Assembly: GCF_045037415.1 (NCBI RefSeq)
Contig: NZ_CP173438.1
DNA from: Escherichia coli
Lineage (GTDB): Bacteria > Pseudomonadota > Gammaproteobacteria > Enterobacterales > Enterobacteriaceae
Length of the DNA: 64,000 bases
Strand: one strand, 5' to 3'
In this document: positions 48,301 through 54,300 of the stretch, piece by piece
How the letters are laid out: each line of letters begins with the position of its first letter
Position numbering within the stretch: the stretch's first letter is position 1
Made by a program: the position numbers

Positions 48301-51300
48301 TGTTTTCATAAAAGCAAAGTCAACAAGATAAAACAATAAAAACTCTTACACAACCAGCTGATGTTTTTAAAATAGAGGATAATATAAGACAAGCATAACC
48401 TCGTTCACTTCAATGCTACTCCTATCGTTCTTTTGCGTCACAGAGCGCCTGCCGGACAACTGCATCATAGACCAAACGGAACTGCTTCCGTCGATTAATC
48501 AGATGGCAGCGCATAAACACGCTCAACAACCCGTTTGACTGCTTCAATTTTAAGCTCTTCGGAATAACGCTTACCGTGTAAGTCTCCCTGCAAAACGAGC
48601 TATCAACTTTTAAGGAGTCTCTGGCCCCCCTGCTTCCGCTCCTGGCACACAGCAGCCCTAGAGACAGTGGAGTAAAGTCATGGAGGCTCGGTGGGGGGAG
48701 GTGCAAATCCTCCCATACAAAAAATACGAAAATCAGTAACGGCTAGAAATCATTCAATACATGCACTCTCGAAATTGCATCAGCCAACCGCAAAACGTTA
48801 TTTCAAAGCCTACTAGCTGCCTTACTTTTTTCCTCAATAACGCGTCGCCAGCAGGAAACAACCTAATCCCTGTTTTGGGCCTCAAAGCTGCTAATGATAA
48901 TCATTTTCATTTTGTATAGGCTGTGCTATAAAACATAGCCGTTGCTATATTTGTTCTAATTTTGCTCACTATAGGTACTAAATTATGCACTCGATAAAAA
49001 AAGTAACCATGCTCTTGGGGGGGCTCGCACTCACCTGCTCGATCGCATTTCAGGCAAGTGCAACTGAAAAATTCAAGGTCATTACAACATTTACCATCAT
49101 CGCGGATATGGCCAAAAACGTGGCGGGAGATGCTGCAGAAGTCTCATCCATAACCAAGCCTGGTGCAGAAATTCATGAGTATCAGCCTACCCCTGGCGAT
49201 ATTAAACGTGCGCAGGGGGCACAACTGATTCTCGCCAATGGTATGAATCTGGAATTGTGGTTCCAACGCTTTTACCAGCATCTCAATGGGGTTCCAGAAG
49301 TAATTGTCTCTTCGGGTGTGACGCCTGTAGGGATCACCGAAGGACCCTATGAGGGCAAACCTAACCCCCATGCATGGATGTCGCCAGATAATGCTCTGAT
49401 TTACGTCGATAATATTCGTGATGCGTTGATAAAATACGATCCGGCAAATGCACAAACCTACCAACGCAATGCCGATACTTATAAAGCCAAGATTACCCAA
49501 ACCCTTGCCCCCCTGCGTAAGCAGATTACGGAACTCCCTGAGAATCAGCGATGGATGGTCACCAGTGAAGGGGCTTTTTCTTATCTCGCACGCGATTTGG
49601 GGCTAAAAGAGCTTTATCTGTGGCCGATTAATGCCGATCAACAAGGAACACCGCAGCAGGTACGTAAGGTTGTTGATATAGTTAAGAAAAATCATATCCC
49701 GGCAGTCTTTAGCGAGAGTACGATTTCCGATAAACCAGCGCGTCAGGTTGCGCGTGAAACCGGCGCACACTACGGCGGTGTGCTCTATGTCGATTCCCTG
49801 AGCACAGAAAACGGCCCGGTACCGACGTATATCGACCTTCTTAAGGTTACTACCAGTACGCTGGTACAGGGAATTAAAGCTGGGAAAAGGGAGAAATAAT
49901 GATGCAATCTGCAGGCATTGTCGTTAATGATGTTACTGTCACCTGGCGTAACGGGCACACAGCACTGCGCGATGCATCCTTCACAGTACCAAGTGGATCT
50001 ATTGCCGCTCTGGTTGGGGTAAACGGTTCCGGAAAATCGACGTTGTTTAAAGCGATTATGGGATTTGTGCGTCTGACCAGCGGAAAGATATCTGTTCTGG
50101 GTATTCCCACGCGACAGGCGTTACAGAAAAACCTGGTTGCCTACGTCCCTCAGTCAGAAGATGTTGACTGGTCATTTCCTGTACTGGTGGAAGATGTGGT
50201 GATGATGGGCCGCTATGGGCATATGGGTATGTTGCGTATCGCCAAAAAGAGGGATCGTCAAATTGTCACCGATGCGCTGGAACGTGTCGATATGGTGAAT
50301 TTTCGCCATCGACAAATCGGCGAGCTTTCCGGTGGACAAAAGAAACGCGTCTTTCTGGCGAGAGCGATTGCACAGCAGGGTGATGTGATCCTGCTGGATG
50401 AACCTTTTACTGGCGTTGATGTGAAAACCGAAGCCAAAATCATCAGCCTGTTGAGGGAGTTACGCGCGGAAGGCAAAACGATGCTTGTCTCAACACACAA
50501 TCTCGGATCCGTCACGACATTTTGCGATTATACGGTCATGGTCAAAGGCACCGTCCTGGCAAGCGGGCCGACAGACACCACTTTTACAGCCGAGAACCTA
50601 GAGCTGGCTTTTAGCGGCGTACTGCGCCATGTCACACTTAACGGCTCGGAAGAAAGCATTATTACTGACGATGAACGCCCTTTTGTGGCTCATCGACCGT
50701 CAGCGGTGCAGAGGGAAGAAAGATGAACGTGCTACTGGAACCCTTCAGCTATGAATATATGCTCAATGCGATGTGGGTCTCGGCGATGGTCGGCGGTCTC
50801 TGCGCTTTCCTGTCATGCTATCTGATGCTAAAAGGCTGGTCGCTGATTGGCGATGCGTTGTCGCACTCTATTGTCCCGGGTGTTGCGGGGGCATATATGC
50901 TGGGGCTTCCGTTTTCTCTGGGAGCCTTCTTTTCCGGCGGACTGGCTGCGGGCAGCATGCTGTTTCTTAACCAACGCACCCGCTTAAAAGAAGATGCCAT
51001 CATCGGTCTGATCTTCTCGTCCTTTTTTGGCCTGGGGCTGTTTATGGTGTCATTGAACCCGACATCTGTGAACATTCAGACCATCGTCCTGGGCAATATT
51101 CTGGCAATCGATCCGGCGGATATCCTGCAACTCACTATCATTGGCATTCTCTCGATCATCGTGCTTTTTTTCAAATGGAAAGATCTTATGGTGACCTTTT
51201 TCGACGAGAATCACGCCCGTGCTATTGGATTGCATCCGGGCAGATTAAAACTCCTCTTCTTCACCCTGCTGTCGGTTTCGACCGTTGCGGCGCTGCAAAC

Positions 51301-54300
51301 GGTTGGTGCCTTTCTGGTGATCTGTCTGGTGGTGACTCCCGGTGCAACAGCATGGTTGTTAACCGATCGTTTTCCCCGCCTGCTCATGATTGCTGTAACT
51401 ATTGGCAGTGTAACCAGTTTCCTCGGCGCGTGGGTCAGTTACTTTCTGGACGGCGCGACAGGTGGAATCATCGTGGTGGCGCAGACACTGCTGTTTCTTT
51501 TAGCATTTGTCTTTGCGCCCACCCATGGGCTTTTGGCAAATCGTCGGCGTGCGCATAAGGCGCTGGAGGATCGCTCATGATGGCATTATTACTGGAGCCA
51601 CTGCAGTTCACCTTTATGAGTCACGCACTGCTGATTTCACTGGTAGTTTCCATACCCTGTGCGCTGCTGTCGGTCTTTCTGGTCCTGAAAGGTTGGGCAC
51701 TGATGGGTGACGCGATGAGTCATGCGGTTTTTCCTGGCATCGTGCTTGCCTGGATTCTGGGGTTACCTTTGGCTACAGGGGCATTCGTCGCCGGAGTATT
51801 CTGTGCGGTGGCGACGGGATACCTGAAAGACAACAGCCGAATCAAGCAAGATACAGTGATGGGGATTGTTTTTTCTGGCATGTTTGCCGCAGGTCTGATC
51901 TTGTATATTGCAGTCAAACCAGACGTACATCTTGACCATATTCTTTTCGGCGACATGCTCGGGATAACCATCGGCGATATAATCCAGACGATGATTATTG
52001 CCGGGCTGGTTACACTTGTTATTAGCGTAAAATGGCGGGATTTTTTGCTGTTCAGCTTTGATTATCAACAGGCGCAGGTAAGCGGTTTGCATACGAGATG
52101 GCTGCATTATGGGCTGCTGTGCATGGTCTCTCTGACCATTGTGGCGACGCTGAAAGCGGTAGGTATCATTCTCTCCATTTCTCTGCTCATTGCGCCTGGC
52201 GCCATTGCGGTACTCCTGACACAACGCTTTCATATTGCGCTCCTACTGGCGACTGGCATATCGGTAATAGTGTCAATGACTGGTGTCTGGTTGTCCTTTT
52301 TTATCGACAGCGCACCAGCTCCGACGATTGTCGTCTTATTCGCGGTTTTGTTCATCATGACGTTTGCCGTTACCAGCATCAACGCACGCAAAAAGGGAAA
52401 CTCCCATACACAGGATCTGTTATCACCCAATTAGCACAACATCCGAGGACAGCAACACCCGATACTTTTTCCTGGCTTCCAGCAACGGGGTTTCTTCCTC
52501 CGTTGCATATACAGCTCACCTTTTTTCACCCACGATTAACCAACAGCCAGACCAGCAGACACGCCACCACCGGCACAGCAAAATCCATCAGGCTTGCCAC
52601 ATCCCAAGCTCGCGGATCAAAACCGCCCCACCACGGCATATTCATTCGCTTGCCATGCCCGAACATTTCAATCCAGCGATATTCTGCCTGGGTATGTTCA
52701 CGCGCAATGAAGAACGTACAACCGGCTATCGCTCCGTAAGCCCAGTTTCCGGTAAAAAGACCAACCAGTATCTGCGCAGCCACAGCACAAAGTGCATGAA
52801 GTAAGGGGCTTATATCCATTATTTCCTCCTTTCAGCTCCATTCCCGAAGCGGTGTTTCCAGCTCCACGACATAATCAGAGAATACAGAAACATCAAACAA
52901 GTCATCAAGAATGCGAATGTTGACAAAATAACCGTCATTCCGGACACAGACAGGTTCTCCCTCTTCTGTTACCCCTGTTTCTGTGTAGGTGAAACCAATT
53001 TCATCGACTAACAGTTTATTCTGGAGGTCTTCATCCTCCTCCCAGTCAAGAGATGACAGGAAGGATTTAAACTCTCTGTTACCAGGAAATTTCAAAGTTA
53101 AATCTTTCATACTGCCTCCTTGATTTGCCTGTCATTTAATTCTTTAAACCAGACTCTGAAATTTCTGATGTGTCCAAACAAATGACGCGTTCCTGCTGCG
53201 GTCTGCCCACCAAACCGGTACGATGTTGCTGTAACTCCAAATATTTTACCATTAAGGTTTGTTGTATAATTACCATTGCATATTGCATTTACTGATAAAT
53301 CAGATTTAGCTCTCACACCCACAATGAACCTTTCTCCATCTGAGGCAATTTGTGGCTGAACCATTCCTACGTTGGCGCTTATCTTTCCTGTTGCAACAAA
53401 CCCCAGCGATAAATAATTATCATCAATACTGTGCCCTCCAACATCAAATATCCTTGGCGCAACATTGGGCGGTGTACTCCAGTTCCTGCTTACTTCGCAC
53501 AATACCGTAAAAGGCCGTGTTGACAGGTTATTCTGCGATGGGATAGTAACTACATCACTTGCGCGTGTTGTTGGCATTGTAGTTACAATAAATGACGATG
53601 CCGTATTGCCCAGTTCAATTTGCGGCGTCGTCATGGTTAATGTTGAGTCATCATAGAATGTCTCATTACTTATTTTATTTGTCATATAAAAAGCACAGTT
53701 AACGGTATCAATGTCCGTATTAGCTGTATAAGTGGCCTCATAGTAGGTCCACTCGCCCTGTTGTTCAGCTTTGGCTGTTATAAGGGATGTATTACCGCTT
53801 ACTGTTGCGATCCGGGTATCCAGATCAAGATAAGAGTCAGCAGAGAAGGTATCTGTTCCACCAATAATAACTGAAACTCTTAACCTGCATCGTGCTTTAG
53901 CGCCTTTAACCCGGCACGAAAAAGTGAAACATTCACCACTTGCCAGCGGGAATCTGTCTGCTGCAACCACACCATGCACAGTATAGCCACCTGTTGTTCC
54001 CACTATACTTTCCGTGGGTGTCACCGTGGCATAATTGAACCCCTGTTTATCAGTGCCAAATGTTTTATTCAGTGCGGAATGAACAGTCCATGAGTCTGGT
54101 TTATTTGAGTTCCTCAGATAATTTGTCCTCTGTCCTTCAATCAATAAGCCATCGCGCTCAAATCGCGGTTCGTCAACTTCAGCAAGCTTGAGTTGGCCGG
54201 ACTTATTAATATACGTTGCTGTTGAAGCACGTTTAAACTTAACAATCTTGTCGCCTGGCATTGTTATTTCATCGTCACCAATAACTATCTTTTTATAAGA

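Follow-up and report, generated by a model that had tools for sequence, protein, structure and literature searches.

The window described here, the whole 64,000-nucleotide stretch of Escherichia coli contig NZ_CP173438.1, carries the metal-uptake operon sitABCD in the accessory region of an icd-integrated, lambda-like prophage. Four intact open reading frames (ORFs) make up the operon:

48985–49899, plus strand: sitA, periplasmic Mn2+/Fe2+ binding protein of 304 amino acids (aa) with an N-terminal signal peptide; 100% identical to annotated SitA.
49899–50726, plus strand: sitB, ATP-binding cassette (ABC) ATPase, 275 aa; full-length match to NCBIfam NF011630.
50723–51580, plus strand: sitC, permease, 285 aa; 100% identical to annotated SitC and resembling metal ABC permease families.
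51577–52434, plus strand: sitD, permease, 285 aa; 100% identical to annotated SitD and resembling metal ABC permease families.

All four predicted proteins are identical to RefSeq proteins of these names, and a 3.8-kb query spanning promoter and operon was 100% identical to the chromosomal sitA, sitB, sitC and sitD annotations of several E. coli strains. SitB scored 592.8 bits against NF011630, an equivalog model for manganese/iron ABC transporter ATP-binding proteins with a cut-off of 393. One substrate-binding protein, one ATPase and two permeases constitute the operon make-up of a cluster A-I importer, and a preliminary description of this DNA, which had placed a complete SitA–D transporter at this position, was correct. 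It had also called the genes translationally coupled. Their ends overlap by 1 nt (TAATG), 4 nt (ATGA) and 4 nt (ATGA), and the Shine-Dalgarno-like sequences GGGAG, GAGGG and GGAGG lie upstream of sitB, sitC and sitD, respectively, so the term is a fair one for this layout.

The best solved relative of SitA was YfeA of Yersinia (E = 4e-125, aligned without gaps over 274 residues), followed by cyanobacterial MntC, PsaA and MtsA; ZnuA was far weaker, at about 1e-12. Residues His64, His129, Glu195 and Asp270 of SitA are each identical in the aligned YfeA, and we take their counterparts to be the metal ligands of that protein. Neither the SitA sequence nor its alignment with YfeA contained a His-rich zinc loop or insertion. 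SitA is a cluster-9 (A-I) binding protein of the Mn/Fe type, and the YfeA relationship, together with the His-His-Glu-Asp set, upholds the earlier assignment to that class. For transport specificity itself we rely on the literature: Mn2+ and Fe2+ transport is known for the sit systems of Salmonella, avian pathogenic E. coli (APEC) and Shigella, and Porcheron et al. (PMC3852070) have reviewed both the affinities of transport and the effects of sit mutation on virulence in these organisms.

Upstream of sitA we located the following elements:

48890–48908, plus strand: Fur box GCTAATGATAATCATTTTC, matching the consensus GATAATGATAATCATTATC at 17 of 19 positions.
48904–48932, plus strand: putative sigma-70 promoter, read by eye, with -35 TTTTCA (48904–48909), a 17-nt spacer and -10 TATAAA (48927–48932).
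48915–48930, plus strand: second upstream palindrome TATAGGCTGTGCTATA, of the type ATAGC-N4-GCTAT, directly 5′ of the MntR box.
48931–48952, plus strand: MntR-type operator AAACATAGC-CGTT-GCTATATTT, matching at 17 of 18 positions, with A for G at 48949.

The Fur box is the sole site within 3 mismatches of GATAATGATAATCATTATC in the 64 kb, where shuffled sequences gave an expectation of 0.01. The MntR palindrome, searched as AAACATAGC-N4-GCTATGTTT, likewise had one match in the window, with 1 mismatch (0.04 expected). This pattern was validated against the mntH promoter of E. coli K-12, which reads ...TTTGATAATCATTCTCGTTTGGCATAGCATGAAACATAGCAAAGGCTATGTTTTAGAGG...; there, AAACATAGCAAAGGCTATGTTT stands immediately 3′ of the Fur-like GATAATCATTCTC, giving the same order, Fur then MntR, as in sit. 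The preliminary description had set the MntR-type palindrome 20 bp downstream of the Fur-box-like site, and we accept this, both elements being present with a gap of 22 bp. With that gap the two boxes do not overlap each other. The operators are adjacent and not "overlapping", as they had been called; any overlap is at most with the putative -35 and -10 elements. As for the interval 48893–52434 originally assigned to the operon and its promoter, the end is the exact sitD stop, whereas the start falls within the Fur box, which begins at 48890.

Both operator motifs, besides being unexpected by chance, are kept across independent copies of sit, and the claim that they are present stands. Four promoters were aligned: that of the window, an IncF plasmid copy flanked by insertion sequence (IS) IS1, a prophage copy by uspF/ompN (the Rac/ttcA site), and a sit-like operon on a Pantoea megaplasmid that is only 75% identical to E. 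coli sit. In all three E. coli contexts the Fur and MntR boxes are kept while the flanks vary, and GCTATAAAA is unchanged in all four promoters, Pantoea included. The Pantoea upstream region otherwise barely aligns; its longest conserved stretch is the block TATAGCCTGTGCTATAAAAAATAGCCTATGCTA, and no Fur box was found there in the four-promoter alignment. The Fur box GCTAATGATAATCATTTTC is identical in the ttcA-site prophage copy, in the phage Jouyvirus ev207 and in three IMG/VR copies, matches at 16 of 19 positions in two further IMG/VR copies, and matches at 15 of 19 in the plasmid copy, amid variable flanks. A motif scan of the fetched loci found the perfect MntR palindrome, with GCTATGTTT as its right half, in ev207, the IMG/VR copies and the ttcA-site prophage copy. 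The A at 48949 (right half GCTATATTT) is common to the window and strain 4/1-1, and the exact 64-mer that bears it recurs in 361 of the 5426 complete E. coli genomes; the A is thus an allele widespread in a lineage, not a mutation private to one strain.

Repression of sit by Fur and by MntR, the DtxR-family manganese sensor of enterobacteria, is known from published work. Mn-bound MntR represses MntH and SitABCD, and iron acts on sit and mntH regulation through Fur, or through MntR when Fur is absent (Porcheron et al., PMC3852070, citing Patzer & Hantke 2001, Ikeda et al. 2005 and Runyen-Janecky et al. 2006). The direct experiments on sit were carried out in Salmonella and Shigella, and we draw on them through that review (PMC3852070). 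In the window, TTTTCA and TATAAA would be the -35 and -10 elements of the sitA promoter.

The second palindrome, TATAGGCTGTGCTATA, is kept as TATAGCCTGTGCTATA in the Pantoea operon, within the block TATAGCCTGTGCTATAAAAAATAGCCTATGCTA, and 48915–48930 together with 48931–48952 forms the best-conserved upstream stretch between E. coli and Pantoea. The palindrome at 48915–48930 may be a second MntR site. That the sit promoter contains tandem MntR palindromes, and that the G-to-A change at 48949 weakens repression by manganese, is a doubtful proposal, which we put forward tentatively. If it were true, the tandem arrangement would suggest cooperative binding of two MntR dimers, and the prophage allele with A48949 would, compared with the other prophage alleles and the plasmid copy, be expressed at higher manganese.

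More distant sit-like operons from IMG/VR, whose SitA proteins are 62–63% identical, lacked the Fur–MntR pair, and two GC-rich contigs had neither box. On one AT-rich contig (SitA ~62%) an 18/19 Fur box was present at L011 5905–5923 and no MntR box was found; on a GC-rich contig, a TGCAATTGCAATTGCAAT repeat lies upstream of the sit-like operon at about L014 5950–5967. This repeat may resemble a rhizobial Mur site. These distant SitA homologues are uninformative about the E. coli cassette.

Comparison of the surroundings of sit in different replicons gives the segment that the copies share:

48797–52461, plus strand: portable sit cassette (promoter, operators and sitABCD), common to the icd-prophage, ttcA-site prophage and IncF-plasmid copies.

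Plasmid copies align with the window from 48797/48800 to 52461 at 96.7% identity and the ttcA-site prophage copy from 48797 to 52454 at 97.5%, and beyond these limits the flanks of the sit copies diverge. The alignment limits indicate a moving unit of ~3.66 kb that carries its promoter and operators, extending from 188 bp upstream of the sitA start to ~20–27 bp past the sitD stop. A comparison of flanks with plasmid and island sit loci had been suggested at the outset as a guide to the route of acquisition; made against plasmid and other chromosomal loci, it returned the common 48797–52461 core with differing flanks. A homologue of window 48674–48805, which lies upstream of sit here, sits downstream of sitD in the ttcA-site copy (L005 9680–9815). 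This points to separate events, and the cassette junctions would derive from separate recombination or IS-mediated events and not from one inherited junction. A search for repeats bounding the cassette, whether transposon-like ends or att-like direct repeats, returned only short matches at chance level, and the idea that the cassette is itself a mobile element is unsupported.

The operon is widespread. It is present in 2445 of the 5426 complete E. coli genomes, at 1785 chromosomal and 1061 plasmid places, and PLSDB has it on 1066 plasmids, for the most part conjugative E. coli plasmids of the IncF type. A second chromosomal sit lineage (L005 6001–9653, 97.5% identity), on the chromosome of E. 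coli 914033, stands at the end of a different lambdoid prophage by uspF/ompN (Rac/ttcA site), just past tail-fibre and tail-fibre-assembly genes. The only part of sit on plasmid CP088648.1 is the promoter segment (window 48797–49003), matched at 83% identity by 50360–50566, a stretch in which no sit genes are annotated.

The position of the operon relative to the prophage is set by the features on either side of it:

46904–47071, minus strand: 3′-end remnant of icd (icdC), marking the prophage end on the attR side; annotated as a partial isocitrate dehydrogenase pseudogene in strain 4/1-1.
47528–48298, minus strand: 256-aa hypothetical protein in the accessory (b-region-like) segment; phrog_20520, a PHROG family with no assigned function, and gp29 beside sit in ev207.
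48504–48576, strand unassigned: IS3-family transposase remnant, ~85–88% identical to annotated IS3-family transposase genes.
48635–48792: widespread prophage-associated non-coding segment, upstream of the sit cassette.
52526–52819 and 52832–53110, minus strand: small conserved phage ORFs, convergent to sit; phrog_1443 and phrog_1361.
53107–55134, minus strand: tail-fibre or tail-spike gene; tail families phrog_1419 and phrog_3279, in a layout like that of ev207 gp22–gp24.

Genomes without the prophage match the window at 46850–47067 only, inside icd. A match that stops at ~47067 within icd places the prophage end there and sit within the att-bounded element, and the prophage runs from ~47068 rightwards to the window end. 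The operon lies, as the preliminary description had it, in the prophage accessory region, between the tail-fibre genes (53107–55134 and beyond, minus strand) and the icd remnant; this is the equivalent of the lambda b region, between tail fibres and att. In strain 4/1-1, identical to the window over the query searched, bluR, ycgX, ymgL, the partial icd pseudogene, a hypothetical gene and sitABCD come first, followed by the two small ORFs, tail fibre, J, tail assembly, tape measure, head and terminase; the window has the same layout. The arrangement of icd remnant, sit and phage ORFs (6.45 kb) is found in 739 of the 5426 complete genomes.

The same organisation occurs in phage genomes. Deposited phage genomes that contain sitABCD at ≥95% identity number 27, and in 26 the identity is ≥99%; these records are ~46–50 kb long, hold the operon in the same position and include ev207, as classified by the International Committee on Taxonomy of Viruses (ICTV), and Perceval of strain LF82. 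The 46.7-kb genome of ev207 has sitDCBA placed after the tail genes and before an icd fragment beside the integrase. It is colinear with window 46839–53218 at 98.8% identity; its tail genes match at 95.6%, and mosaicism is confined to the J C-terminus and tail-fibre segment (75–85% identity). SitA forms a PHROG family of its own, phrog_8216. In this prophage and in all 27 phage records, sit is situated within the phage genome between tail fibre and att, the situation of a moron. The operon and the tail genes converge. On plasmids, too, sit is accompanied by its own upstream region with the operators, and its GC content is 50.2%, against 55.0% in the adjacent tail region.

Published work describes sit explicitly as a moron (PMC9928086, PMC6969025). 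Of the temperate lambda coliphages that Mathieu et al. (2020) grew from E. coli of infants, 70% had sitABCD, preceded "in all cases" by a fur box (PMC6969025). Misson et al. (2023) identified sitABCD as a moron of Perceval in LF82, in which RNA-seq placed its transcription ~5-fold above the prophage background; this is our source for expression from a prophage. Perceval DNA was found encapsidated, although Gally transduction was judged to account for about half of the particles in which it was packaged (PMC9928086). In a review of E. coli genomic islands, a pathogenicity island at icd (PAI-icd) with "Iss, Sit system" has been listed for 536, UTI89, RS218, S88, APEC O1 and LF82, and a PAI-icd with the Sit system for CFT073 (PMC7545054). 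The att-bounded position, the 27 phage genomes and this literature together bear out the earlier reading of sit as a fitness or virulence moron.

From these data we conclude, with a probability of about 95%, that the locus is the canonical sitABCD of extraintestinal pathogenic E. coli (ExPEC) and Shigella, carried as cargo of an icd-integrated, lambda-like prophage (PAI-icd). A handful of points weigh against this conclusion. A consensus promoter scan of 48300–52900 returned no promoter of at least 9/12 upstream of sitA; the scan rule requires T at the last -10 position, hence the putative TATAAA was unlisted, and the promoter assignment is a manual reading. The same scan region had no canonical intrinsic terminator after sitD. 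The Fur and MntR operators of this sequence are predicted from motifs, and the right MntR half-site, with its A at 48949, is one mismatch away from the perfect palindrome of most other copies. Finally, the window covers only the tail half of the prophage.

SitA is weakly similar to AztC, ZnuA and AdcA models, and Salmonella SitABCD also imports Zn2+, with low affinity (PMC3852070); even so, that the transporter belongs to the ZnuABC or AdcA type and takes up mainly zinc seems to us next to inconceivable, as its closest relatives are the Mn/Fe proteins YfeA, MntC, PsaA and MtsA (ZnuA at ~1e-12), its ligand set is His-His-Glu-Asp and not three His, the His-rich loop is absent, and its operators are of the Fur and MntR type, not Zur. 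The operators themselves could be chance matches without a role in sit regulation, given that the region upstream of sitA is AT-rich. With only 0.01 (Fur) and 0.04 (MntR) matches expected per 64 kb, however, and with both motifs kept in sit copies that differ at flanking positions, the chance of this is very slight. The MntR region is, moreover, where most of the upstream conservation between E. coli and Pantoea lies. Site-directed mutation of the homologous sites reportedly abolished control in Salmonella (Ikeda 2005).

Whether sit is true phage cargo, and whether this copy can move, are separate matters. An IS3-family remnant and non-coding debris lie directly upstream of the cassette, the same cassette resides on IS1-flanked IncF plasmids (so that phage is not its only vehicle), the adjoining tail-fibre gene is annotated as two partial pseudogenes in strain 4/1-1, and the window shows only part of the prophage. 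All this would suit a chromosomal islet that abuts the prophage, or is fixed beside a decayed one, and is absent from particles. We consider such an islet highly improbable, because the att boundaries enclose sit and leave the icd remnant (46904–47071) outside, 27 phage records hold it in the same position, sit-bearing phages have been cultured from lysogens (PMC6969025), and Perceval DNA is encapsidated, although about half of the particles were judged Gally transducing particles (PMC9928086). A narrower objection, that the family is mobile in general while the prophage copy here is defective and its sit a domesticated remnant that its own phage cannot move, is unlikely but carries appreciable weight. 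The tail-fibre ORF has 675 aa as compared with 791 aa in ev207, the J C-terminus/tail-fibre region is just 75–85% identical to that of ev207, the tail-fibre gene is marked partial in strain 4/1-1 by the annotation pipeline PGAP, and the regulatory and integrase half of the prophage falls outside the window. Set against these, the tail-fibre ORF is one continuous frame in the window, the head and tail genes up to terminase are all annotated as intact in strain 4/1-1, and mosaic tail fibres are normal among functional lambdoid phages.

With sitABCD taken as prophage cargo, the locus would work as follows. SitA would capture metal in the periplasm, SitC and SitD would form the membrane channel and SitB would hydrolyse ATP, resulting in Mn2+ and Fe2+ import. 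The genes form a self-contained cassette of 3.7 kb within the accessory b-region of an ev207/Perceval-type temperate phage that integrates into icd, and the lysogen would transcribe sit from its own promoter, plugged into host metal sensing. Fe2+-Fur is predicted to occupy the Fur box over the -35 element, and Mn2+-MntR the palindrome over the -10/start region. With Fur covering the -35 and MntR covering the -10/start, we infer that repression would be by promoter occlusion, and repression by both proteins would restrict synthesis of the transporter to conditions of iron and manganese scarcity, such as those within a host. Once expressed, sit would support growth and oxidative-stress resistance.

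The system is recognised as a determinant of fitness and virulence in ExPEC, APEC, adherent-invasive E. coli (AIEC) and Shigella, its contribution to virulence being known from the literature, and its presence on inducible lambdoid phages makes it a textbook-style moron wired into host regulators. The whole story of the locus has already been published and none of it is new; since all is documented, no new biology is added. The value of the analysis lies in a correct annotation of the window and in a positive control for recognising an operon and its operators from raw sequence.

Some observations concern the neighbouring features. Window 46839–47071 (the icd remnant and ~65 bp beyond) is 98.8% identical to the icd fragment of ev207; its identity with the 3′ end of icd, or with icdC, elsewhere in E. 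coli is only ~92–93%. The 3′ end of icd is known to be made mosaic in this way by phages that integrate there. The 256-aa protein at 47528–48298 had no NCBIfam, PADLOC or Pfam match; its candidacy as a known defence gene is unsupported, searches of NCBIfam, PHROGs, PADLOC and Pfam having returned only phrog_20520. A 94-aa ORF at 48422–48706 (minus strand) is probably not a gene, as it has no family and overlaps the IS3 remnant. The tail-fibre ORF at 53107–55134, a single frame of 675 aa here and two partial pseudogenes in strain 4/1-1 (PGAP), has an Ala/Ser/Lys-rich, low-complexity middle, and its ev207 counterpart has 791 aa. An Rfam scan of 46000–53200 gave two sub-threshold matches, to IS009 and STnc150, and no riboswitch or known small RNA (sRNA) in the sit leader. 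The IS009 match, at 52430–52528 on the minus strand, spans the interval from the sitD stop to the convergent ORF (51.7 bits against a gathering threshold of 117, E = 7e-10), and the same spacer contains a hairpin, GCAACGG-N11-CCGTTGC, without a T-run. The match to STnc150, an Hfq-binding sRNA, is at 46752–46890 on the plus strand (33 bits against 60), just outside the prophage end and beside the icd remnant.

The closest known counterparts of the locus are the PAI-icd sitABCD operons of CFT073, 536, UTI89, APEC O1 and LF82, together with that of Shigella flexneri. They share the genes, at 99–100% identity to the chromosomal copies, the position in an icd-integrated lambdoid prophage, and the promoter; nothing substantive differs, and the window allele has A for G at 48949. 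The temperate lambdoid phages that carry sit (ev207, 1H12, Lambda_2E9 and others of Mathieu et al. 2020, and Perceval of LF82) share the order tail fibre, two small ORFs, sitDCBA, hypothetical gene, icd fragment and integrase, with 98.8% identity over 6.4 kb. The ev207-type phages differ in the J C-terminus/tail-fibre segment, which is 75–85% identical, and the window tail-fibre ORF is 675 aa long as against 791 aa. On IncF virulence plasmids of the ColV/ColBM type, sit has the same cassette limits (48797–52461, 96.7%) and the same operator pair; there it is flanked by IS1 and lies near aerobactin genes, not phage genes, and its Fur box differs from that of the window by three substitutions and its left MntR half-site by one (AAACATAGT).

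Beyond these, the sitABCD operon of Salmonella Typhimurium belongs, by description, to the same four-gene family, with separate MntR and Fur sites and dual repression (PMC3852070); it lies in Salmonella pathogenicity island 1 (SPI-1), whereas the operon of the window is in a prophage. The mntH promoter of K-12 also has a Fur-like box followed by the palindrome AAACATAGC-N4-GCTATGTTT just upstream of the start codon, but mntH encodes an NRAMP-type proton symporter of the core genome, and its boxes are more closely spaced than those of sit. YfeABCD of Yersinia pestis contains, in YfeA, the closest solved structure to SitA, with ~274 aligned residues and the same metal ligands. YfeABCD is chromosomal, and in Yersinia, which lacks MntR, Fur serves both metals (PMC3852070).

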